This document shows positions 9,186 to 22,694 of a stretch of 44,510 bases of DNA, piece after piece. The notes beneath the pieces are model-generated. The model was not told the DNA's origin. It saw only the letters and a list, made by a program, of their open reading frames with translations, and did not search any database. Within the stretch, counting starts at the first letter, position 1. Every line of letters starts with the position of its first letter. The DNA comes from Enterobacteria phage mEp460. Made by a program: the position numbers and the translations under genes. Where the stretch lies: the sequence record NC_019716.1; one strand, written 5' to 3'.

Positions 9186-9515
9186 ATGCAGTTTGTCATG
9201 CGGCTTGCCCGGGAGTTCCGGCGGGCAGACTGGCGGCGGATGCTGTCGGAAATGTCGGCCACTGAGCTTGGTGAGTGGGGCGATTATTTCCGGATGCAGA
9301 GCTTCAGTGATGTGTGGATGGATGCGCAGTTTGCCTCGCTGAAGGCATTGATCGTGAGAATGGTGTCCGGCAGCAGTGATGCTGCGGTGGCTGATTTCAG
9401 CCTTTTACCGGAAGAGAACGGGATACCGGAGCGAACGGACGAAGAACTGATGCATCTTGGGGAAGGTATTTCCGGAGGTGTGCGTTATGGACCAGATAGC
9501 CAACCTGGTCATTGA
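9186..9515 (+). CDS. T: Tail assembly chaperone T segment (expressed as G-T fusion by -1 frameshift)
   Basis: ORF in -1 frame relative to G; the -1 frame opens at 9153 within the last 8 codons of G; no RBS of its own. Confidence 0.7.
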   Translation: MQFVMRLAREFRRADWRRMLSEMSATELGEWGDYFRMQSFSDVWMDAQFASLKALIVRMVSGSSDAAVADFSLLPEENGIPERTDEELMHLGEGISGGVRYGPDSQPGH

Positions 9516-12500
9516 TTTGGGGATTGATGCGGCAGAGTTTAAAAATGAAATTCCCCGTATCAAAAACCTTCTGAATGGTGCAGCCAGCGATGCAGAACGG
9601 TCTTCTGCCCGTATGCAGCGTTTTATGGAGCGTCAGACTCAGGCCGCCCGGCAGACAACGCAGGCGGCTTCTTCGGCTGCAACAGCCGCATCCGTCCATG
9701 CGCAGACGGTGGAGAAGAACGCACAGGCTCATGAACGCATGTCCCGCGAGGTGGAGAAAACCCGCCAGCGCATGGAGGCACTGAGCCAGAAAATGCGCGA
9801 GGAACAGGCGCAGGCCATGGCTCTGGCGGAGGCTCAGGATAAAGCGGCTGCTGCGTTTTATCGTCAGATTGACAGTGTGAAACAGGCCGGTGCGGGGCTG
9901 CAGGAATTACAGCGTATTCAGCAGCAGATCCGACAGGCCAGAAACAGTGGCGGGATTGGTCAGCAGGATTATCTGGCGCTGATTTCTGAGGTTACGGCGA
10001 AAACCCGTGTTCTTACACAGGCTGAGGAAGAGGCTACCCGACAGAAAGTGGCGTTTATCCGTCAGCTTAAAGAGCAGGCAACCCGCCAGAATCTTTCATC
10101 TTCTGAGTTGCTTCGTGCTAAGGCTGCCCAGCTGGGGGTAAGCAGTGCTGCAGAAGTGTATATCCGCAAAATGGAGCAGGCAGGAAAAGCCACGCATTCG
10201 CTGGGTCTGAAAAGTGCAGCGGCCCGCCAGGAGATAGGCGTTCTGATAGGTGAACTGGCCCGCGGCAATTTAGGGGCGCTGAGGGGATCCGGGATAACGC
10301 TGGCTAACCGTGCCGGATGGATAGACACACTGATGTCACCGAAAGGCATGATGCTGGGCGGGGTTATTGGCGGTATTGCCGCGGCTGTCTATGGTCTGGG
10401 TAAAGCCTGGTATGACGGTCAGAAGGAGGGGGAAGAATTTAACCGCCAGTTGTCGCTGACGGGGCATTATGCCGGAGTCACTGCCGGGCAGCTGTGGACG
10501 CTTAGTCGTGCTATTTCCGGGAATGGTATCACGCAACATGCTGCAGCCGGTGCGCTGGCTCAGGTGGTGGGGAGTGGTGCATTTCGTGGAAACGATATCG
10601 GTATGGTGGCGAGAGCTGCCGCACAGATGGAGCGATCGGTTGGCCAGTCGGTCAGCGATACCATAAATCAGTTTAAGCGGCTGAAGGATGATCCTGTAAA
10701 TGCCGCGAAGGCTCTGGACAATGAGCTGCATTTTCTTACTGCCACTCAGCTTGAGCAGATACGCGTCCTTGGGGAACAGGGGCGGTCCAGTGATGCGGCA
10801 CGGATAGCCATGTCTGCTCTGGCAGAGGAAACCGGTCGGCGTACTGCGGATATTGATAATAACCTCAATGCGCTGGGCAGTACGCTGAAGTATCTGTCTG
10901 ATTTATGGAGTCGTTTCTGGGATGCGGCCATGAATATTGGTCGTGAAGACTCGCTGGATGAACAGATTTCCGCTTTACAGGAGAAAGTGTCGCGGGCGAA
11001 AAGACTCCCCTGGACGGCATCATCTTTTCAGGTTGAGTACGATCAGCAGCGTCTTAACGAGCTTCAGGAGAAAAAACGCCAGAAGGATTTGCAGGATGCA
11101 AAAGAGCAGGCAGAGCGGAATTATCAGGAGCAACAGAAACGCCGTAATGCTGAAAATGCTGCACTGAACCGGATGAATGAAACGGAAGCAGCACGACATC
11201 AGCGTGAAATTGCGCGTATTAATGCCATGCAGTACGCCGATCAGACTGTCAGGGATGCGGCGATACAACGTGAAAATGAACGTTACGAGAAAGCCCTGGC
11301 ATCCGGTAAGAAAAAAACACGCGAAACCCGTAATGATGAGGCCACCCGGTTATTGCTGCAGTTCAGTCAGCAACAGGCACAGGTGGAAGGACAGATTGCT
11401 GCTGCCAGACAGTCAGCAGGCATTGCCACGGAAAGGATGACAGAAGCGCATAAACAGCTTCTGGCTCTGCAGCAGCGCATCAGCGACCTGGACGGGAAAA
11501 AACTGACGGCAGATGAAAAGAGTTTGCTGGCCCGTAAAGATGAACTGATTCAGGCACTGGCGCTGCTGGATGTAAAACAGCAGGAGCTTCAGAAACAGAC
11601 GGCACTCAACGAGCTGAAGAAAAAAACAATTCAGCTGACCAGTCAACTGGCTGAAGAAGAGCGCGCTCAGCGTCAGCAACATGACCTGGATATCGCCACG
11701 GTGGGTATGGGTGATCAGCAGCGGCAGCGATATCAGGTACAACTGAGTCTTCGCCAGAAATACCAGCAACAGCTGGAGCAGTTGAGGCGGGATAGTGAGC
11801 AGAAAGGGACATATAACACGGATGACTACAGAAAGGCCGAGCAGGCGCTGACGGAGAGCCTGAACCGACAACTGAATGAGAATCGCCGTTACTGGCAACA
11901 GCTTGAAGTTGTGCAGGGTAACTGGAAAAACGGAGTCCTGCGTGCATTTCAGGATTTTACCGTGGATGCAGATAATACGGCAGGAACAGCAGAACAGGTG
12001 TTCTCGTCAGCCTTCAGCAACATGGGAAATGGCCTGGCAACTTTTGTCACTACCGGCAAACTCAATTTCAAATCCTTCACCTCTTCTGTGCTGTCAGATA
12101 TGGCGAAAATCCTGGCGCAGGCAACCATGATGAAATCGATAAAAGGGATTGGCAGTGTACTGGGATTTGATCTCAGCAGCCTTTCCCTGAATGCCAATGG
12201 GGGGATTTATCAGTCTGCTGATTTGAGTCGTTACAGTGGCACGGTGGTTAACCGTCCGACGTTTTTTGCTTTTGCAAAAGGCGCGGGTGTGATGGGGGAA
12301 GCGGGACCTGAAGCCATTCTGCCTCTGCGTCGTGGTGCTGACGGTAAGCTGGGGGTTGTGGCGGATATTGGTGGTTCAGGTATGGCGATGTTTGCCCCGC
12401 AGTACAACATCGAGATCAATAACGATGGCACGAACGGGCAGATAGGTCCGGCTGCCCTGAAGGTGGTTTATGACCTTGGGAAAAAAGCAGCAGCGGACTT

Positions 12501-12552
12501 TATGCAACAGCAGGCCCGTGATGGTGGTCGGTTAAGTGGAGCATATCGGTAA
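9487..12552 (+). CDS. H: Tail tape measure protein H
   Basis: 1021 aa, coiled-coil rich; N-terminus (LVIDLGIDAAEF) and C-terminus (INNDGTNGQIGPAALKVVYD) match lambda gpH. Confidence 0.9.
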   Translation: MDQIANLVIDLGIDAAEFKNEIPRIKNLLNGAASDAERSSARMQRFMERQTQAARQTTQAASSAATAASVHAQTVEKNAQAHERMSREVEKTRQRMEALSQKMREEQAQAMALAEAQDKAAAAFYRQIDSVKQAGAGLQELQRIQQQIRQARNSGGIGQQDYLALISEVTAKTRVLTQAEEEATRQKVAFIRQLKEQATRQNLSSSELLRAKAAQLGVSSAAEVYIRKMEQAGKATHSLGLKSAAARQEIGVLIGELARGNLGALRGSGITLANRAGWIDTLMSPKGMMLGGVIGGIAAAVYGLGKAWYDGQKEGEEFNRQLSLTGHYAGVTAGQLWTLSRAISGNGITQHAAAGALAQVVGSGAFRGNDIGMVARAAAQMERSVGQSVSDTINQFKRLKDDPVNAAKALDNELHFLTATQLEQIRVLGEQGRSSDAARIAMSALAEETGRRTADIDNNLNALGSTLKYLSDLWSRFWDAAMNIGREDSLDEQISALQEKVSRAKRLPWTASSFQVEYDQQRLNELQEKKRQKDLQDAKEQAERNYQEQQKRRNAENAALNRMNETEAARHQREIARINAMQYADQTVRDAAIQRENERYEKALASGKKKTRETRNDEATRLLLQFSQQQAQVEGQIAAARQSAGIATERMTEAHKQLLALQQRISDLDGKKLTADEKSLLARKDELIQALALLDVKQQELQKQTALNELKKKTIQLTSQLAEEERAQRQQHDLDIATVGMGDQQRQRYQVQLSLRQKYQQQLEQLRRDSEQKGTYNTDDYRKAEQALTESLNRQLNENRRYWQQLEVVQGNWKNGVLRAFQDFTVDADNTAGTAEQVFSSAFSNMGNGLATFVTTGKLNFKSFTSSVLSDMAKILAQATMMKSIKGIGSVLGFDLSSLSLNANGGIYQSADLSRYSGTVVNRPTFFAFAKGAGVMGEAGPEAILPLRRGADGKLGVVADIGGSGMAMFAPQYNIEINNDGTNGQIGPAALKVVYDLGKKAAADFMQQQARDGGRLSGAYR

Positions 12553-12881
12553 TGGAGACGTTTCACTGGAAAGTGCGCCCGGATATGAATGTGGTATCAG
12601 AGCCGAAAGTGGTGACAGTGAAGCTGGGCGATGGTTATGAACAGCGTCGTGCGGCGGGACTGAATAACCAGTTGTCGACTTACAGCGTGACGATACGTGT
12701 TCGTAAATGTGAACACCCATCTTTAAAAGCCTTTCTGGAACGGCACGGTGGCGTCCGCGCATTTCAGTGGACGCCACCTTATGACTGGAAACCGATTAGG
12801 GTGGTTTGTCGTAAATGGTCGGCAAGCGTGGGGGCGCTGTGGGTAACCATAACGGCAGATTTTGAACAGGTCGTGGCATAG
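12552..12881 (+). CDS. M: Minor tail protein M
   Basis: 109 aa, same length as lambda gpM with METFHWKV...GDGYEQR...WTPPYDW motifs. Confidence 0.9.
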   Translation: METFHWKVRPDMNVVSEPKVVTVKLGDGYEQRRAAGLNNQLSTYSVTIRVRKCEHPSLKAFLERHGGVRAFQWTPPYDWKPIRVVCRKWSASVGALWVTITADFEQVVA

Positions 12882-12890
12882 GAGGCTCTG

Positions 12891-13589
12891 ATGCAGGATA
12901 TTCCACAGGAAACACATCATGAGACGACACGCCTCACTCAGTCAGCCCAGGTGGTGCTCTGGGAAATCGATCTGACAGAGGTCGGTGGTGAACGTTATTT
13001 TTTCTGTAATGAGCAGAACGAAAAAGGTGAGCCGGTTACCTGGCAGGGGCGGCAGTATCAGGCATACCCCATTCAGGGGACAGGATTTGAACTGAACGGC
13101 AAGGGCAGTGCTGCCCGTCCGACACTGACGGTTTCTAACCTGCACGGCATGGTCACGGGGATGGCGGAAGACCTGCAGAGTCTGGTCGGCGGAACGGTGG
13201 TCAGGCGTAAGGTTTACGCCCGTTTTCTGGATGCGGTGAACTTCGTCAACGGAAACAGCGACGCCGATCCGGAGCAGGAGGTGATCAGCCGCTGGCGCAT
13301 CGAGCAGTGCAGCGAACTGAGTGCGGTCAGTGCCTCCTTTGTGTTGTCCACACCGACGGAAACGGATGGTGCCGTTTTTCCGGGGCGCATCATGCTGGCT
13401 AATACCTGCACCTGGACCTATCGCGGTGATGAGTGCGGTTATCACGGTCCGGCTGTCGCGGATGAATATGATCAGCCGACGTCCGATATCACGAAGGATA
13501 AATGCAGCAAATGCCTGAGTGGCTGTAAGTTTCGCAATAACGTCGGCAACTTTGGCGGCTTCCTTTCCATTAACAAACTTTCGCAGTAA
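12891..13589 (+). CDS. L: Minor tail protein L
   Basis: 232 aa, same length as lambda gpL; Cys-cluster C-terminus. Confidence 0.9.
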   Translation: MQDIPQETHHETTRLTQSAQVVLWEIDLTEVGGERYFFCNEQNEKGEPVTWQGRQYQAYPIQGTGFELNGKGSAARPTLTVSNLHGMVTGMAEDLQSLVGGTVVRRKVYARFLDAVNFVNGNSDADPEQEVISRWRIEQCSELSAVSASFVLSTPTETDGAVFPGRIMLANTCTWTYRGDECGYHGPAVADEYDQPTSDITKDKCSKCLSGCKFRNNVGNFGGFLSINKLSQ

Positions 13590-14943: not shown

Positions 14944-17900
14944 ATGGGTAAAGGCAGCAGTAAGGGGCATACCCCGCGCGAAGCAAAGGACAACCTGAAG
15001 TCCACGCAGTTGCTGAGTGTGATCGATGCCATCAGCGAAGGGCCGATTGAAGGTCCGGTGGATGGATTAAAAAGCGTGCTGCTGAACAGTACACCGGTGC
15101 TGGACAGTGAGGGGAATACTAACATCTCCGGTGTCACGGTGGTGTTCCGGGCAGGTGAGCAGGAACAGACACCGCCGGAGGGATTTGAATCCTCCGGTTC
15201 CGAGACGGTACTGGGTACGGAAGTGAAATACGACACGCCGATCACCCGGACCATCACGTCGGCAAACATTGACCGTCTGCGCTTTACCTTCGGTGTGCAG
15301 GCACTGGTGGAAACCACCTCAAAGGGGGATAGGAATCCGTCGGAAGTTCGCCTGCTGGTTCAGATACAACGTAACGGTGGCTGGGTGACGGAAAAAGACA
15401 TCACCATTAAGGGCAAAACCACCTCGCAGTATCTGGCCTCGGTAGTGGTGGATAATCTGCCGCCGCGCCCGTTCAACATCCGGATGCGCAGGATGACGCC
15501 GGACAGCACCACAGACCAGCTGCAGAACAAAACGCTCTGGTCGTCATACACCGAAATCATCGATGTGAAACAGTGCTACCCGAACACGGCACTGGTCGGC
15601 GTACAGGTGGATTCGGAGCAGTTCGGCAGCCAGCAGGTGAGCCGTAATTATCATCTTCGCGGGCGTATTCTGCAGGTGCCGTCGAACTATAACCCGCAGA
15701 CGCGGCAATACAGCGGTATCTGGGACGGAACGTTTAAGCCAGCATACAGCAACAACATGGCCTGGTGTCTGTGGGATATGCTGACCCACCCGCGCTACGG
15801 CATGGGTAAACGTCTTGGTGCGGCAGATGTGGATAAATGGGCGCTGTATGTCATCGGCCAGTGTTGCGACCAGTCGGTGCCGGACGGTTTTGGCGGCACG
15901 GAGCCGCGCATCACCTGTAATGCCTGGCTGACCACACAGCGTAAGGCGTGGGATGTTCTCAGTGATTTCTGCTCGGCGATGCGCTGTATGCCGGTATGGA
16001 ACGGGCAGACGCTGACGTTCGTGCAGGACCGACCATCAGATAAGGTGTGGACCTATAACCGCAGTAATGTGGTGATGCCGGATGATGGCGCGCCGTTCCG
16101 CTACAGCTTCAGCGCCCTGAAGGACCGCCATAATGCCGTTGAGGTGAACTGGATTGACCCGGATAACGGCTGGGAGACGGCGACAGAGCTTGTGGAGGAC
16201 ACGCAAGCCATTGCCCGTTACGGTCGTAACGTCACGAAGATGGATGCCTTTGGCTGTACCAGGCGGGGGCAGGCGCACCGCGCCGGGCTGTGGCTGATTA
16301 AAACGGAACTGCTGGAGACGCAGACCGTGGACTTCAGCGTGGGTGCCGAAGGGCTTCGCCATGTGCCGGGCGATGTTATTGAAATCTGTGATGATGACTA
16401 TGCCGGTATCAGCACCGGCGGGCGCGTGCTGGCGGTGAACAGCCAGACGCGGACACTGACGCTCGACCGTGAAATCACGCTGCCATCCTCCGGCACCACG
16501 CTGATAAGCCTGGTTGACGGGCAGGGTAATCCGGTGAGCGTGGAGGTCCAGTCCGTCACCGACGGCGTGAAGGTAAAAGTGAGCCGTGTTCCTGACGGCG
16601 TTGCCGGATACAGCGTATGGGGGCTGAAGCTGCCGACGCTGCGCCAGCGCCTGTTCCGCTGCGTGAGTATCCGTGAGAACGATGACGGCACGTATGCCAT
16701 CACTGCCGTGCAGCATGTACCGGAGAAAGAAGCCATCGTGGATAACGGGGCGCACTTTGACGGTGACCAGAGTGGCACGGTGAATGGTGTCACGCCGCCA
16801 GCAGTTCAGCACCTGACCGCAGAAGTCACCGCAGACAGCGGGGAATACCAGGTGCTGGCGCGCTGGGACACGCCGAAGGTGGTGAAGGGGGTGAGCTTTA
16901 TGCTTCGCCTGACCGTGGCAGCGGACGACGGCAGTGAGCGGCTGGTCAGCACGGCCCGGACGACGGAAACCACATATCGCTTCACGCAGCTGGCGCTGGG
17001 AAATTACAGGCTGACAGTCCGGGCGGTAAATGCATGGGGACAGCAGGGCGATCCTGCATCGGTATTGTTCCGGATCGCCGCACCGGCAGCGCCGTCGCGG
17101 ATTGAGCTGACGCCGGGCTATTTTCAGATAACCGCCACGCCGCATCTTGCCGTTTATGATCCGACGGTACAGTTTGAGTTCTGGTTCTCGGAAAAGCGGA
17201 TTGCGGATATCAGGCAGGTTGAAACCACAGCCCGCTATCTTGGTACGGCGCTGTACTGGATAGCCGCCAGTATCAATATCAAACCGGGCCATGATTATTA
17301 CTTTTATATCCGCAGTGTGAACACAGTCGGCAAATCGGCATTTGTGGAGGCCGTCGGTCGGGCGAGCGATGATGCGGAAGGTTACCTGGATTTTTTCAAA
17401 GGCCAGATAACCGAATCCCATCTCGGCAAGGAGCTGCTGGAAAAAGTCGACCTGACGGAGGATAACGCCAGCAGACTGGATGAGTTTTCGAAAGAGTGGA
17501 AAGACGCCAACGATAAATGGAATGCCATGTGGGGCGTCAAAATTGAGCAGACCGAAGACGGTAAGCATTATGTCGCGGGGCTTGGCCTCAGCATGGAGGA
17601 TACAGAGGAAGGCAAACTGAGCCAGTTTCTGGTTGCCGCCAATCGTATCGCGTTTATTGACCCGGCAAACGGGAATGAAACGCCGATGTTTGTGGCGCAG
17701 GGCAACCAGATATTCATGAACGACGTGTTCCTCAAACGCCTGACGGCCCCCACCATTACCAGTGGTGGAAATCCACCGGTATTTTCCCTGACACCGGACG
17801 GAAAGCTGACCGCTAAAAATGCGGATATCAGTGGCAGTGTGAATGCGAACTCCGGGACGCTCAACAACGTCACGATAAATGAAAACTGTACGATTAAGGG

Positions 17901-18357
17901 TATGCTGGAGGCGAATCAGGTCAGAGGTGATTTTGTTAAAACAGTATCCAAATCATTCCCGAAAAAGGCAGGTACGTGGGGTAACACGGAAACACCAGAC
18001 GGGACGGTTACAGTCACCATCAGCGATGATCATAACTTTGACCGTCAAATCATTATTCCGCCCATTATCTTTAACGGTATAGCGTATGACGATCCGGGAA
18101 GTGGTAATAACCCGGGAGGTACAAGGTACACGGGGTATGGTTTTGAAGTTCGCAAAAACGGCGTATTAATCGCATCCAGAGAAACTAAAGGGGCCATTCC
18201 CGGTAGTTACAGTGCGGTTATTGATATGCCGAGTGGCAGGGGAAGCGTCACTCTGGAGTTTAAGGTTTTCCAGAAAGGCAATCAGGGGGCAGGCAATATC
18301 ACCGACTGTACGGTGATTGTGACCAAAAAGGCTGCTTCCGGCATCAGTATTCGTTGA
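14944..18357 (+). CDS. J: Central tail fibre / host specificity protein J
   Basis: 1137 aa, lambda gpJ-like N-terminus ([24 protein letters not shown]...) and fibronectin-III-like middle; C-terminal part read as divergent. Confidence 0.9.
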
Positions 18358-18379
18358 AATATTTATAACCCCAATAAAG

Positions 18380-18404
18380 GGCGTCAGGAATGACGCCTTT
18401 TTTA
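18380..18404 (+). terminator. Intrinsic terminator after J
   Basis: GGCGTCA-GGAA-TGACGCC hairpin followed by TTTTTTT. Confidence 0.7.
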
Positions 18405-18427
18405 TTGCAGAAAAGCGAGAGGTAATT

Positions 18428-19027
18428 ATGCGTAAAGTTTGTGCAGCCATTTTGTCCGCAGCCATCTGTCTGGTCGTATCCGGTGCGCCTGCATGGGCGT
18501 CTGAACATCAGTCCACGCTAAGCGCGGGGTATCTTCATGCCTCGACGAACGTTCCCGGCAGCGATGATCTTAACGGGATTAACGTGAAATACCGTTATGA
18601 GTTTACGGACACGCTGGGGATGGTGACGTCATTCAGCTATGCAGAAGACAAGAATCGCCAGCTGACTCATTACAGCGATACCCGCTGGCATGAAGATTCC
18701 GTGCGTAACCGCTGGTTCAGCGTGATGGCGGGGCCGTCTGTGCGCGTGAATGAATGGTTCAGCGCGTATGCGATGGCGGGTGTGGCTTACAGCCGTATTT
18801 CGACTTTCTCCGGGGATTATCTCCGCGTAACTGACAACAAGGGGAAAACGCACGAAGTGCTGACCGGAAGTGATGACGGTCGCCGCAGCAACACGTCTCT
18901 GGCGTGGGGGGCTGGCGTGCAGTTTAACCCGACCGAATCCGTGGCCATTGATATTGCTTATGAAGGCTCCGGCAGTGGCGACTGGCGCACTGACGGTTTC
19001 ATCGTGGGTGTCGGTTATAAGTTCTGA
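18428..19027 (+). CDS. lom: Outer-membrane beta-barrel protein Lom (Ail/Lom/PagC family)
   Basis: 199 aa, signal peptide, alternating beta-strand pattern, C-terminal aromatic residue (...GYKF); lambda lom position. Confidence 0.85.
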   Translation: MRKVCAAILSAAICLVVSGAPAWASEHQSTLSAGYLHASTNVPGSDDLNGINVKYRYEFTDTLGMVTSFSYAEDKNRQLTHYSDTRWHEDSVRNRWFSVMAGPSVRVNEWFSAYAMAGVAYSRISTFSGDYLRVTDNKGKTHEVLTGSDDGRRSNTSLAWGAGVQFNPTESVAIDIAYEGSGSGDWRTDGFIVGVGYKF

Positions 19028-19081: not shown

Positions 19082-19091
19082 TGGGGTGAAT

Positions 19092-22000
19092 ATGGCAGTA
19101 AAGATTTCAGGTGTACTGAAAGACGGTGCAGGTAAACCGGTACAGAACTGCACAATCCAGCTGAAAGCAAAACGTAACAGCACCACGGTGGTGGTGAACA
19201 CGGTGGCCTCCGAAAATCCGGATGAAGCCGGGCGTTACAGCATGGACGTTGAGTACGGTCAGTACAGCGTTATTCTGTTGGTGGAAGGCTTCCCGCCGTC
19301 ACATGCCGGGACCATCACCGTGTATGAAGATTCCCGACCCGGTTCGCTGAATGATTTTCTCGGTGCCATGACGGAGGATGATGCCCGTCCGGAGGCACTG
19401 CGCCGCTTTGAACTGATGGTGGAAGAGGTGGCGCATAACGCGTCCGCAGTGGCACAGAACACGGCTGCCGCAAAGAAGTCAGCCAGCGATGCCGGCACAT
19501 CTGCCCGTGAGGCGGCAACCCATGCAACCGATGCCGCAGGCTCAGCACGTGCCGCCAGCACGTCAGCCGGACAGGCTGCATCATCTGCTCAGTCAGCATC
19601 TTCCAGCGCAGGAACGGCATCAACAAAGGCCACTGAAGCATCAAAAAGTGCTGCCGCTGCAGAGTCCTCAAAAAGCGCGGCAGCCACCAGTGCCGGTGCG
19701 GCGAAAACGTCAGAAACGAATGCCGCAGCATCACAACTATCAGCAGCCACTTCTGCATCCACCGCGACCACGAAGGCGTCAGAAGCTGCCACCTCAGCCC
19801 GGGATGCGGCGGCCTCAAAAGAGGCAGCGAAATCATCAGAAACGAACGCATCATCAAGTGCCAGTAGTGCAGCTTCCTCGGCAACGGCGGCAGGAAATTC
19901 CGCGAAGGCCGCAAAAACGTCTGAGACGAATGCGGATAACAGCGCACAGGCGGCAGCAGACTCACAAACTGCATCGGCAAACTCCGCGACAGCAGCCAAA
20001 AAATCAGAAACCAACGCGAAAAATAGCGAGGCAGCAGCAAAGAGCAGCGAAACCAACGCTAAAGCCAGCGAAACTAATGCTAAATCCAGTGAAACAAACG
20101 CGGCGAAATCTGCAGCGGACGCACTTAATTATCGCAACCAGGCGCAAGGGATTGTAGGCACCAGCATCGGCCTCGGGGCATCACCGCGTGATTGTCCTGA
20201 TATTTCCGGCAACCCATCAGGGTATATCGGATTTATGCGCATTATGAGTAATGCAAAAGGCTTTCCATCGATTGCATCCGGTGAAAGCAGTCTTACGGGG
20301 TTTATTAGTCAGGTAGATGGAACACCAGCGTATACAGGTGTATTTCAGGGATGGGCTACGCGCTCGCTTTATACTTATCGCTGGAATCCGACAACAGGCC
20401 CGCAATGGACACGCCACGCTCGCAAAAATGAAGTGGACCGTCTTGACCAATGGAATAGCGAAACATGGTTATATAACCATGATAAATCCATGCGCCTGGG
20501 TTTAACCGGATCAACATGGGGGTGTTACAGCGACACACAAAAAAAATGGATACCGCTTGATGTTTCTCATGGTGGCACTGGCGCAAATAGCCTTGATGAC
20601 GCCAAAACTAATTTGCAAATCCCTGAGGGTGGATTAACAAAAGCGATGACCCTTAATGCCCCTGGTGGTGCAGTGGATGGCAAATACTACCCTGTCATAA
20701 TAGACACATCCGCAATGAATGGGAGCGGTGCTATGTTATGTCCTGTTGAAATAAAAACAGCAGGAGGTCCGGCATCAAATCCGCTTAATAGTAACTCATT
20801 TTTTGGGTTCATTCGATGTGGTGGCTGGAGTGACGTTCGCGATGTGGCTTACGGGTCATTTGTTTGCTATGAAAAAAATGAACTCGGGATACTTTGCATT
20901 AAAGCGTCGCAAAGAGATTATGCGCAGCATGTAGCTTTCTACATCCATAAAAGCGCTTTTCCTGTCGTTGTGCAAACTGGCTACAAGGCGAAAGTTAAGG
21001 TTCCAACAGAAGACTACGTAATTGGTGACAACGGGGTTAGATATAAGTTTGGTGTATCAACGTCAACGGAGGATAACGACAAGAACTTTGTTAAAAATGT
21101 TCTTGACTTCACTGGCGGTGAACATGGCTTCTACAGCAACCTTCCGTTCAGACAAGGGGTGTCAGAAAGGATTGCATTAACAAATGGCCTGAGTTTTGAC
21201 AAAAATTTTACCGTCACTATTCCTATATTTGTAAACAATGGTCAGATTAAAGCAACACAATCTTTCACCGCGTACGGTACAGACGCTTCAAACAGAACAT
21301 TTGTTTCTCAAAGATTACAATCCGAAGGAGGTCCGGTTGTCGATCAAACTGAACTAAGGGCCGCTAACGCTTCTGGTGAAATTATTGTCAGGGACATAAA
21401 TAATTCAGGGAACAGTAAGTTCTTTAATTTTAACCTTGATGGTACCTTCAGTTCTTATCAGGGATTGGTTGTTCACACAGGGCAAAACTGGAGCACTCAA
21501 CATACAGATAATGTAAATAAGTTTAAGCCAATAGCAGGGAGCGCAGGCGGTCCTGACGGAACAATGGTTGTTGGCGGATTCCATGCTCAATTTAGCGGTA
21601 ATTACGTCACACAATTCGCCGGTCGCAACTCCAAATTTTGGGCAAGAAGCTTTGAGGCTGGGGTTGATAAGGGATGGAAACGACTATTAACAGTAGACGA
21701 TCTCAATTCATCTACCGATCTTGCTGTCAGGTCATTAACCACATCTAACCCGGTAAAATCTGGCGGAGGGCGAATTGATGTCCTTGGAAGCACGTCAGAC
21801 TATAGCAAAATGGATTGCTTTGTACGTGGGTTTGATAGCACCGGTAATTCTCTCGCGTGGGCGTTGGGTTCATCAGTCGGCGTAAGTAAGATGCTGTCGC
21901 TAAAAAATTTCTTTAGCGGAGCTGAGATACTGTTAAATGGTAATGACGGCGCGGTTCAACTCAAAACAGGTGCTGTTAACGGGGCTAAAGCGCAGGCGCT

Positions 22001-22694
22001 CACTATCAACAAGGATGAGGTTAATTCAACTGTTGATTTAACTCTTACAAAACAAACAGGGACTGGCAATCGTTTTGTTTTACAGAACTTAGGTAATACA
22101 GAACTATCATTTGCCGCAAAAGTATGGGGATCAAGTGATCGACAAAACGTTTTTGAGGTTGGAACGTCTGCTGCGTATCTGTTTTATGCGCAAAAAACGT
22201 CAGCAGGCCAGTTGTTTGATGTAAATGGCGCTATTAATTGCACAACGCTGAATCAGTCATCAGACCGCGACCTTAAAGACGATATTCTCGTTATCAGCGA
22301 CGCGACGAAAGCAATCCGTAAAATGAACGGATACACCTACACGCTCAGGGAAAACGGGATGCCTTATGCTGGCGTTATTGCACAGGAAGTAATGGAGGCG
22401 ATACCAGAAGCTGTAGGATCGTTTACTCATTACGGTGAAGAGTTGCAGGGACCAACGGTTGACGGCAATGAATTACGTGAAGAAACACGTTATCTGAATG
22501 TTGACTACGCCGCCGTGACGGGGTTACTTGTTCAGGTCGCCCGTGAAACAGATGGTCGCGTTACCGCGCTGGAAGAGGAAAACATAACGCTACGTAAAAA
22601 TCTGGCAACAGCAGGCACCCGGATCAGCACTCTGGAAAATCAGGTAAGCGAACTGGTTGCACTTGTCGGGCAGTTAACAGGAAGCGAACATTGA
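19092..22694 (+). CDS. Side tail fibre protein with Ala/Ser-rich repeat tract and C-terminal intramolecular chaperone (peptidase S74-like) domain
   Basis: About 1200 aa; repeat tract at roughly 19440-20140 (KSSETNA-type repeats); C-terminal SDRDLKDDI...KMNGYTYTLRENG motif plus terminal coiled coil; ORF-track GTG start 19086, ATG 19092 preferred. Confidence 0.8.
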   Translation: MAVKISGVLKDGAGKPVQNCTIQLKAKRNSTTVVVNTVASENPDEAGRYSMDVEYGQYSVILLVEGFPPSHAGTITVYEDSRPGSLNDFLGAMTEDDARPEALRRFELMVEEVAHNASAVAQNTAAAKKSASDAGTSAREAATHATDAAGSARAASTSAGQAASSAQSASSSAGTASTKATEASKSAAAAESSKSAAATSAGAAKTSETNAAASQLSAATSASTATTKASEAATSARDAAASKEAAKSSETNASSSASSAASSATAAGNSAKAAKTSETNADNSAQAAADSQTASANSATAAKKSETNAKNSEAAAKSSETNAKASETNAKSSETNAAKSAADALNYRNQAQGIVGTSIGLGASPRDCPDISGNPSGYIGFMRIMSNAKGFPSIASGESSLTGFISQVDGTPAYTGVFQGWATRSLYTYRWNPTTGPQWTRHARKNEVDRLDQWNSETWLYNHDKSMRLGLTGSTWGCYSDTQKKWIPLDVSHGGTGANSLDDAKTNLQIPEGGLTKAMTLNAPGGAVDGKYYPVIIDTSAMNGSGAMLCPVEIKTAGGPASNPLNSNSFFGFIRCGGWSDVRDVAYGSFVCYEKNELGILCIKASQRDYAQHVAFYIHKSAFPVVVQTGYKAKVKVPTEDYVIGDNGVRYKFGVSTSTEDNDKNFVKNVLDFTGGEHGFYSNLPFRQGVSERIALTNGLSFDKNFTVTIPIFVNNGQIKATQSFTAYGTDASNRTFVSQRLQSEGGPVVDQTELRAANASGEIIVRDINNSGNSKFFNFNLDGTFSSYQGLVVHTGQNWSTQHTDNVNKFKPIAGSAGGPDGTMVVGGFHAQFSGNYVTQFAGRNSKFWARSFEAGVDKGWKRLLTVDDLNSSTDLAVRSLTTSNPVKSGGGRIDVLGSTSDYSKMDCFVRGFDSTGNSLAWALGSSVGVSKMLSLKNFFSGAEILLNGNDGAVQLKTGAVNGAKAQALTINKDEVNSTVDLTLTKQTGTGNRFVLQNLGNTELSFAAKVWGSSDRQNVFEVGTSAAYLFYAQKTSAGQLFDVNGAINCTTLNQSSDRDLKDDILVISDATKAIRKMNGYTYTLRENGMPYAGVIAQEVMEAIPEAVGSFTHYGEELQGPTVDGNELREETRYLNVDYAAVTGLLVQVARETDGRVTALEEENITLRKNLATAGTRISTLENQVSELVALVGQLTGSEH

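Follow-up and report, generated by a model that had tools for sequence, protein, structure and literature searches.

Which host receptor does the central tail fibre of phage mEp460 recognize? The window considered here is the whole 44,510-nucleotide stretch of record NC_019716.1, a complete lambdoid genome whose nearest relatives are Ayreon, mEp460-like phages and several PhiR phages (about 97% over most of both arms). Gene J (14944..18357, plus strand) encodes the central tail fibre, or tip attachment protein, as a single intact open reading frame (ORF) with a translation of 1137 residues. According to the original prediction, made from the sequence of this window, J is lambda-like over most of its length, the last 150 or so residues do not match lambda J's receptor-binding domain (RBD), and the receptor may therefore be one other than LamB. 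The results presented below indicate that the RBD is the allele found in phage 434 and in the host-range hybrid lambda h434, and that its receptor is most probably OmpC, not LamB (probability of roughly 0.8).

Comparison with lambda J (NC_001416, 1132 residues) gave 88% identity over the whole protein (BLASTP), a value that averages over two very different regions. Residues 1–979 were identical at 950 of 979 positions (97.0%), whereas residues 980–1137 were identical in 60 of 164 alignment columns (36.6%), with gaps (p = 1.3e-76 for the contrast, Fisher exact test). In bins of 50 residues, identity was 98% for positions 901–950, 78% for positions 951–1000, and then 40%, 30% and 30%. At the DNA level, the lambda-like body of J (14944..17880, plus strand), which encodes the hub domains, two FNIII/Ig domains, the helical shaft and the beta-prism fibre, was 94.5% identical to lambda, and the match broke off at about 17884–17900. 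Codon 980 begins at 17881, one base downstream from the start of the region that had been singled out (17880). A sensitive blastn search of phage records with 17880–18357 returned 72 records, all of them at least 90% identical, and lambda was absent from these matches. The alignments with lambda J and with other J C-termini therefore agree with both parts of the description given in the original prediction, including its coordinates: the body of J is lambda-like, and no high identity to lambda J was found in the C-terminal domain. The DNA divergence from lambda extends beyond the J stop codon and across the lom-like gene to about 18960.

The divergence of the RBD includes four sets of insertions and deletions (indels) relative to lambda J, namely a 2-residue insertion at lambda positions 1011/1012, a 6-residue insertion at about 1043–1049, a 1-residue insertion at about 1078, and net deletions around 1099–1113. 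In a survey covering 1207 natural homologues of J, Maddamsetti et al. (2018; PMC6646904) reported that indels at 1012, 1048–1049, 1077–1078 and 1107 define J lineages, within a specificity region spanning residues 960–1132. Since the four indels of the window coincide with these sites, its J is one of the lineages already described. Residues 1012 and 1107 are also critical to the shift of lambda to OmpF in the laboratory (PMC6646904). The RBD thus falls outside the LamB-binding allele of lambda, from which it differs by indels in each of the variable loops L1–L4, and a receptor different from that of lambda is expected on this basis. A divergent RBD might nevertheless bind LamB through a different solution. 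In favour of continued LamB binding, the domain has the same fold as the lambda RBD, as detailed below, and unrelated GpJ tips of other siphophage families also bind LamB (bioRxiv 10.64898/2026.04.02.716166). We consider this very improbable in view of the low identity, of the presence of indels in all four loops that define the lambda receptor interface and host-range sites, and of the fact that the literature names OmpC, not LamB, as the receptor of phages 434 and h434, which carry the window-type allele.

The divergent C-terminus is still a J receptor-binding domain. The Pfam family PF12421 (Ig_GpJ_C) was detected at residues 1001–1136 (E 4.6e-25), with coverage of model positions 1–134 of 135. 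Among sequences of the PDB, the RBD matched 9wca ('A8 gpJ 713'; E 2.4e-32) and lambda gpJ (8xcj/8iyk; E about 1e-22). An AlphaFold2 model of residues 980–1137, built from a shallow alignment of 10 sequences, was all-beta with 12 strands (mean pLDDT 76.5, pTM 0.72). Foldseek superposed this model on the gpJ structures 8xck, 9wcb, 9wca and 8xcj (E about 1e-13, probability 1.00, TM 0.74–0.77), and the runners-up were far weaker (E 2.5e-4 or worse). These results indicate that the fold is conserved and that the divergence is allelic. With lambda gpJ (8XCJ/8XCK), the protein of the window therefore shares PF12421, the Ig-like fold (TM 0.74–0.76) and, at 97% identity, the rest of J; the difference lies in the RBD, with indels in the loops to which lambda host-range mutations map.

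The allele to which this RBD belongs was identified by comparison with the J protein of phage 434 (UMO75286.1 in OL657226). The two proteins are of equal length (1137 residues) and differ by 30 amino acid substitutions in all, with 97.8% identity for residues 1–979 and 150 identical positions out of 158 (94.9%), without gaps, for residues 980–1137. The RBD-coding DNA was identical at 438 of 477 nucleotides (91.8%), and the last 18 nucleotides of J (18340..18357) were 100% identical. The codon differences in the RBD comprised 24 synonymous and 8 nonsynonymous changes, corresponding to a ratio of nonsynonymous to synonymous substitution rates (dN/dS) of 0.068, which indicates purifying selection and argues for a conserved function. 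Over the full-length J gene, nucleotide identity was 95% to the J genes of 434, lambda h434 imm21, Evi, PhiR49_1, Perceval and others. In a tblastn search of 50,697 phage records with the RBD, 72 records had identities of at least 90%, and none of the remaining matches exceeded 46%. By sequence, the RBD of the window is therefore a member of a discrete 434/h434 allele class, which includes 434, lambda h434 imm21, cdtI, Ayreon and long-tailed phages encoding Shiga toxin (Stx), of the Stx1a and Stx2c types.

The same allele is widespread in bacterial genomes. The RBD DNA segment was present in 2111 of the 5426 RefSeq complete E. coli genomes (about 39%), with 100% nucleotide identity in two complete genomes and 99.4% in several others, and a protein search also retrieved the allele from E. 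albertii and Shigella sonnei. The 434-type tip is among the commonest J tips of E. coli prophages. The J RBD of the window is thus a classical, common and previously described allele. The suggestion of a non-LamB specificity is supported by this assignment, the literature giving OmpC instead of LamB for the 434/h434 class; it did not recognize that the allele is named, classical and very common, and the specificity is accordingly not a new one.

These data also bear on the possibility that the C-terminal part of J lacks a function, as a decayed or chimeric remnant, or that it is an artefact of sequencing or assembly. Nothing specific speaks for it beyond the composition of the protein database, in which a homologue search with the 158-residue query returned mainly short fragments and many frameshifted pieces of the RBD, from draft assemblies. 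The reading frame is uninterrupted and of the same length as 434 J, PF12421 is matched from end to end, the dN/dS ratio is low, and the cassette recurs without change in independent complete genomes. The explanation is effectively refuted.

The assignment of OmpC to the 434 class comes from the literature. According to published work, the receptor both of phage 434 and of lambda hybrids equipped with its tail-fibre gene is OmpC and not LamB, and replacement of lambda J by the 434 tail-fibre gene results in binding to OmpC, the receptor of 434 itself (PMC3509688; PMC11101478). The h434 host-range allele is the allele sequenced in lambda h434 imm21 (PMC9119081). Additional evidence comes from Brodel et al. 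(PMC11338833), who transferred the C-termini of A8 and 1A2, two other naturally occurring variants of gpJ, to lambda J. The resulting particles, equipped with a P2-type side fibre, delivered DNA in an OmpC-dependent manner into cells from which lamB had been deleted. The J tip alone can thus confer the use of OmpC. The complex of A8 gpJ with OmpC has been solved (PDB 9wcb). Three allele classes of this RBD family, among them the class to which the sequence of the window belongs, are therefore established as binding OmpC. For the exact variant present in the window, which differs from 434 at 8 of the 158 RBD residues, the use of OmpC is inferred from these precedents. Of the receptors that had been listed as candidates (LamB, OmpC, FhuA and BtuB), the evidence points specifically to OmpC.

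The two grafted variants differ from the window RBD to different extents. The A8 RBD, a natural E. coli prophage allele (9WCA, 9WCB), is the closest solved structure by sequence (50.7% identity), has the same fold (TM 0.75–0.77) and has been shown to use OmpC. However, it represents another allele class, and three of its variable loops (the first, the second and the last) contain indels relative to the window, so that its contact residues are not transferable to the RBD of the window. The 1A2 RBD belongs to the same domain family (about 42% identity to the window RBD) and is of the type found in PhiR40_1, the C-terminus of which resembles the 1A2 sequence given in the supplement of PMC11338833. 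This type is common in long-tailed Stx and O157 prophages, and also occurs in the phages that are closest to the window phage over the whole genome. 1A2 uses OmpC of the EDL933 type and is reported not to deliver DNA into cells producing K-12 OmpC (PMC11338833). In contrast, phages of the 434 class grow on K-12, and relatives with a 434-type RBD, Ayreon and PhiR26_1, have been propagated on E. coli K-12.

In the literature, the only statement found that bears on the receptor of mEp460 itself is a general one, according to which lambdoid mEp phages mostly use FhuA and secondarily OmpC. A search for receptor data on the PhiR phages retrieved nothing relevant. The BASEL completion paper (PMC11990801) contains no lambdoid J receptors beyond those of lambda and Ur-lambda, and a 2026 preprint on receptor prediction (bioRxiv 10.64898/2026.04.02.716166) covers GpJ of the Drexlerviridae type only and none of the 434 type.

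Four observations weigh against the assignment of OmpC as the receptor. First, the confidence of the RBD model is only moderate, as judged from its mean pLDDT and from the 10 sequences of the underlying alignment. Second, in lambda h434 imm21 (OM418627), the left junction of the 434 segment is located between lambda coordinates 17619 and 17637, so that 434 DNA starts at about codon 705–711 of J and runs through lom, stf and tfa. Third, OmpC is polymorphic, and A8 and 1A2 accept different OmpC variants (PMC11338833). Fourth, the RBD differs from that of 434 by eight substitutions (E980Q, N991T, T1000A, S1004A, A1009V, R1099G, Q1110H and G1115R, with the residue of the window given first), several of which are in or beside the loops equivalent to the host-range loops of lambda. 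The polymorphism of OmpC and the dependence of variant choice on the allele imply that the details of the window phage's host range escape prediction.

The extent of the 434 segment has a direct consequence for the interpretation of the classical experiments. We had considered lambda h434 imm21 as a means of mapping the h434 determinant to the RBD, and this failed, because the 434 segment spans the region from about codon 705–711 of J through stf and tfa. The historical 'h434' allele is more than a receptor domain, and the hybrid does not isolate the RBD. That the 434 RBD by itself determines the use of OmpC is therefore a conclusion drawn from reviews and from the analogy with A8 and 1A2. This leaves room for an explanation in which the OmpC dependence of 434-type phages resides in their side tail fibres, the terminal receptor of 434-type J being something else. 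The presence of 434 stf and tfa besides the 434 J C-terminus in lambda h434 imm21 speaks for this explanation, as does the report that the side fibres of Ur-lambda bind OmpC (PMC11990801; PMC11338833). However, reviews attribute the switch to OmpC to J, or the tail-fibre gene (PMC3509688; PMC11101478), DNA ejection by lambda-like siphophages is triggered by binding of the J RBD to a porin, and direct binding to OmpC is known from two homologous J RBD alleles, for one of which the structure of the complex has been solved (9wcb). Moreover, the window and 434 share the RBD although their stf products are unrelated past the N-terminal 250 or so residues. A side-fibre origin of the OmpC dependence is thus improbable.

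The eight substitutions raise a different question, that of a shift in specificity within the 434 class. Residue A1009 is in the loop equivalent to the lambda 1012 loop, according to the alignment and the secondary structure of the model, R1099 is in a predicted loop, and Q1110 and G1115 are at or in the equivalent of the lambda 1107 loop. These loop assignments derive from the alignment with the lambda sequence and from host-range sites in the literature, and do not distinguish between top and bottom loops. Conceivably, these four residues retune the RBD, such that variants of the 434 class divide the polymorphic E. coli OmpC alleles between them or that an additional or alternative porin, such as OmpF, is recognized. 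Lambda gains the use of OmpF through changes at 1012 and 1107 in combination with one or two additional mutations in J (PMC6646904), A8 and 1A2 do not accept the same OmpC variants, and position 1115 is tri-allelic within the class (G in the window, R in 434, W in both lambda h434 and Ayreon). On the other side, the dN/dS ratio relative to 434 gives no sign of diversifying selection. In the alignments made, six of the eight residues by which the window differs from 434 recur in other members of the class; Q1110 and G1115 are present in mEp460_ev081. The low dN/dS ratio argues against a new specificity, and so does the recurrence of the cassette in independent genomes (at 100% identity in two complete E. 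coli genomes and at 99% in many more); relatives with near-identical RBDs grow on K-12, as does 434. We therefore regard a shifted specificity as unlikely, if less so than a side-fibre origin. If it were true, the 434 class would offer a natural series for studying fine-scale receptor tracking.

The OmpC reading suggests a mode of action modelled on lambda. In lambda, four loops from each subunit of the RBD trimer enter the LamB trimer from its extracellular side; the RBD trimer becomes wider at its base, and this rearrangement travels up the beta-prism fibre and the helical shaft, opening the tail tip (PMC11101478). In the window phage, three Ig-like RBD copies would be located at the tip of the trimeric J fibre, and would bind through their variable loops to a trimeric porin, in all probability OmpC, at its extracellular face. 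This contact would then be relayed as a conformational change up the fibre, and the tail tip would open for DNA ejection, as for lambda with LamB and for A8 gpJ with OmpC. Since the part of J that lies upstream of residue 980 has 97% identity with its lambda counterpart, the machinery of the relay (beta-prism fibre, shaft, FNIII domains and hub) is shared, and the same relay is expected, with OmpC replacing LamB. By this analogy, the window phage would have a lambda-like trigger mechanism.

How did a 434-type RBD come to be combined with the remainder of this phage? Among close relatives, the RBD and the parts of J around it vary separately. Ayreon has a 434-type RBD (95.6% identity) on a shaft that is only 38% identical (residues about 801–900) and contains a 28-residue insertion, and PhiR40_1, a close relative over the rest of the genome, has a 1A2-type RBD (42% identity) and about 100 extra shaft residues. 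Phages with other RBD alleles resume matching the window at 18340 (query position 460) and continue to match through lom, and some phages with a 434-type RBD are devoid of the lom allele of the window. Judging from the starts and stops of blast matches to other alleles, from which its ends were inferred, the RBD is encoded by a cassette of about 460 bp with conserved junctions, swapped independently of the J body and lom. The cassette (17881..18339, plus strand; residues 980–1132, 434/h434 allele class) would lie between a conserved 5' junction, a segment encoding 16 residues, and the conserved last 18 nucleotides of J, stop codon included (18340..18357, plus strand), the putative 3' recombination junction. 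Its exchange among lambdoid phages would take place by homologous recombination. The helical shaft of J (window about 17400–17650, residues about 820–900) is a second mosaic hotspot, at which the window is lambda- or 434-like (92–94%). The variation of the shaft in Ayreon and PhiR40_1 implies that fibre length varies independently of the receptor domain.

The practical outcome is mainly a correct annotation, and the importance of the assignment beyond that is small. For the window phage, a lambdoid of the mEp460/Ayreon kind, the OmpC reading predicts use of OmpC and no block by lamB or mal mutations, which helps host-range prediction. It also adds a case to the modular exchange of receptor domains between J proteins, which is already documented among naturally occurring J homologues (PMC6646904) and has already been put to use in the engineering of lambda particles (PMC11338833). 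It makes testable no question beyond those already testable with phage 434.

All six Pfam domains of J, FNIII-A_GpJ, Phage-tail_3, Ig_J, Ig_J_second, Phage_Tail_Tip and Ig_GpJ_C (PF24801, PF13550, PF24421, PF24489, PF09327 and PF12421), exceeded their curated cut-offs and occurred in the order expected from lambda gpJ. The tail operon has the order L-K-I-J-lom-stf, with ORFs beginning at 12891, 13595, 14236, 14944, 18428 and 19086, all on the plus strand, which correspond to annotated genes in mEp460_ev081, 434 and lambda. On the basis of both domain order and gene order, J of the window belongs to the lambda-type tip attachment proteins. Two further ORFs overlapping the RBD region, at 17879..18082 (plus strand, out of frame) and 18166..18465 (minus strand), were considered as genes and rejected for want of support, the J frame being under purifying selection. 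A 510-residue antisense ORF lies wholly within J (16036–17568, minus strand); its most likely origin is the GC richness of the coding strand (GC 0.62 at 16–17 kb). Within the body of J, Cys307 and Trp328 (codons 15862–15864 and 15925–15927) replace the Tyr found at both positions in lambda and 434, whereas mEp460_ev081 has Asn and Tyr, respectively. The two residues are within or just ahead of the hub domain (PF13550 from residue 330).

A GC-rich, terminator-like hairpin is located between J and lom (18380..18397); it was detected by a consensus scan only and scored on the minus strand, and a terminator is annotated at the equivalent site in 434 and Ayreon. The lom-like gene (18428..19027, plus strand; PF06316, E 1e-123) encodes an outer-membrane beta-barrel of the Ail/Lom family and forms a separate module neighbouring J. 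Its product is 94% identical to Lom of 434 and 46% identical to Lom of lambda, and the gene forms with the J tip one continuous block of divergence from lambda. A functional link between the lom allele and the RBD was considered and rejected, as the two assort independently among phages. The window thus has in common with 434 the length of J, an RBD alignable without indels and the downstream lom allele, and differs from it in the side fibre, which in 434 comprises 437 residues with a small separate chaperone.

The side tail fibre gene stf of the window (19086..22694, plus strand) encodes up to 1202 residues, with PF08400 at residues 3–136 and a Peptidase_S74 chaperone domain at residues 1059–1110. 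Its N-terminal 345 residues are 77% identical to lambda orf-401. No separate tail-fibre-assembly ORF was found downstream of stf, and the product is probably a primary-adsorption fibre acting alongside J, with a C-terminal intramolecular chaperone domain. Inside stf, the GC content drops from about 57% to 44–47%, and a 21-bp tandem repeat is present in 2.7 copies at 20045–20101. Upstream in the tail operon, the tape-measure ORF (9457–12552) encodes 1031 residues, compared with 853 for lambda H (10541–13102 in the lambda h434 imm21 record), and this difference suggests a longer tail. The 11–12 kb stretch of the window has an unusually high AT skew (0.32).

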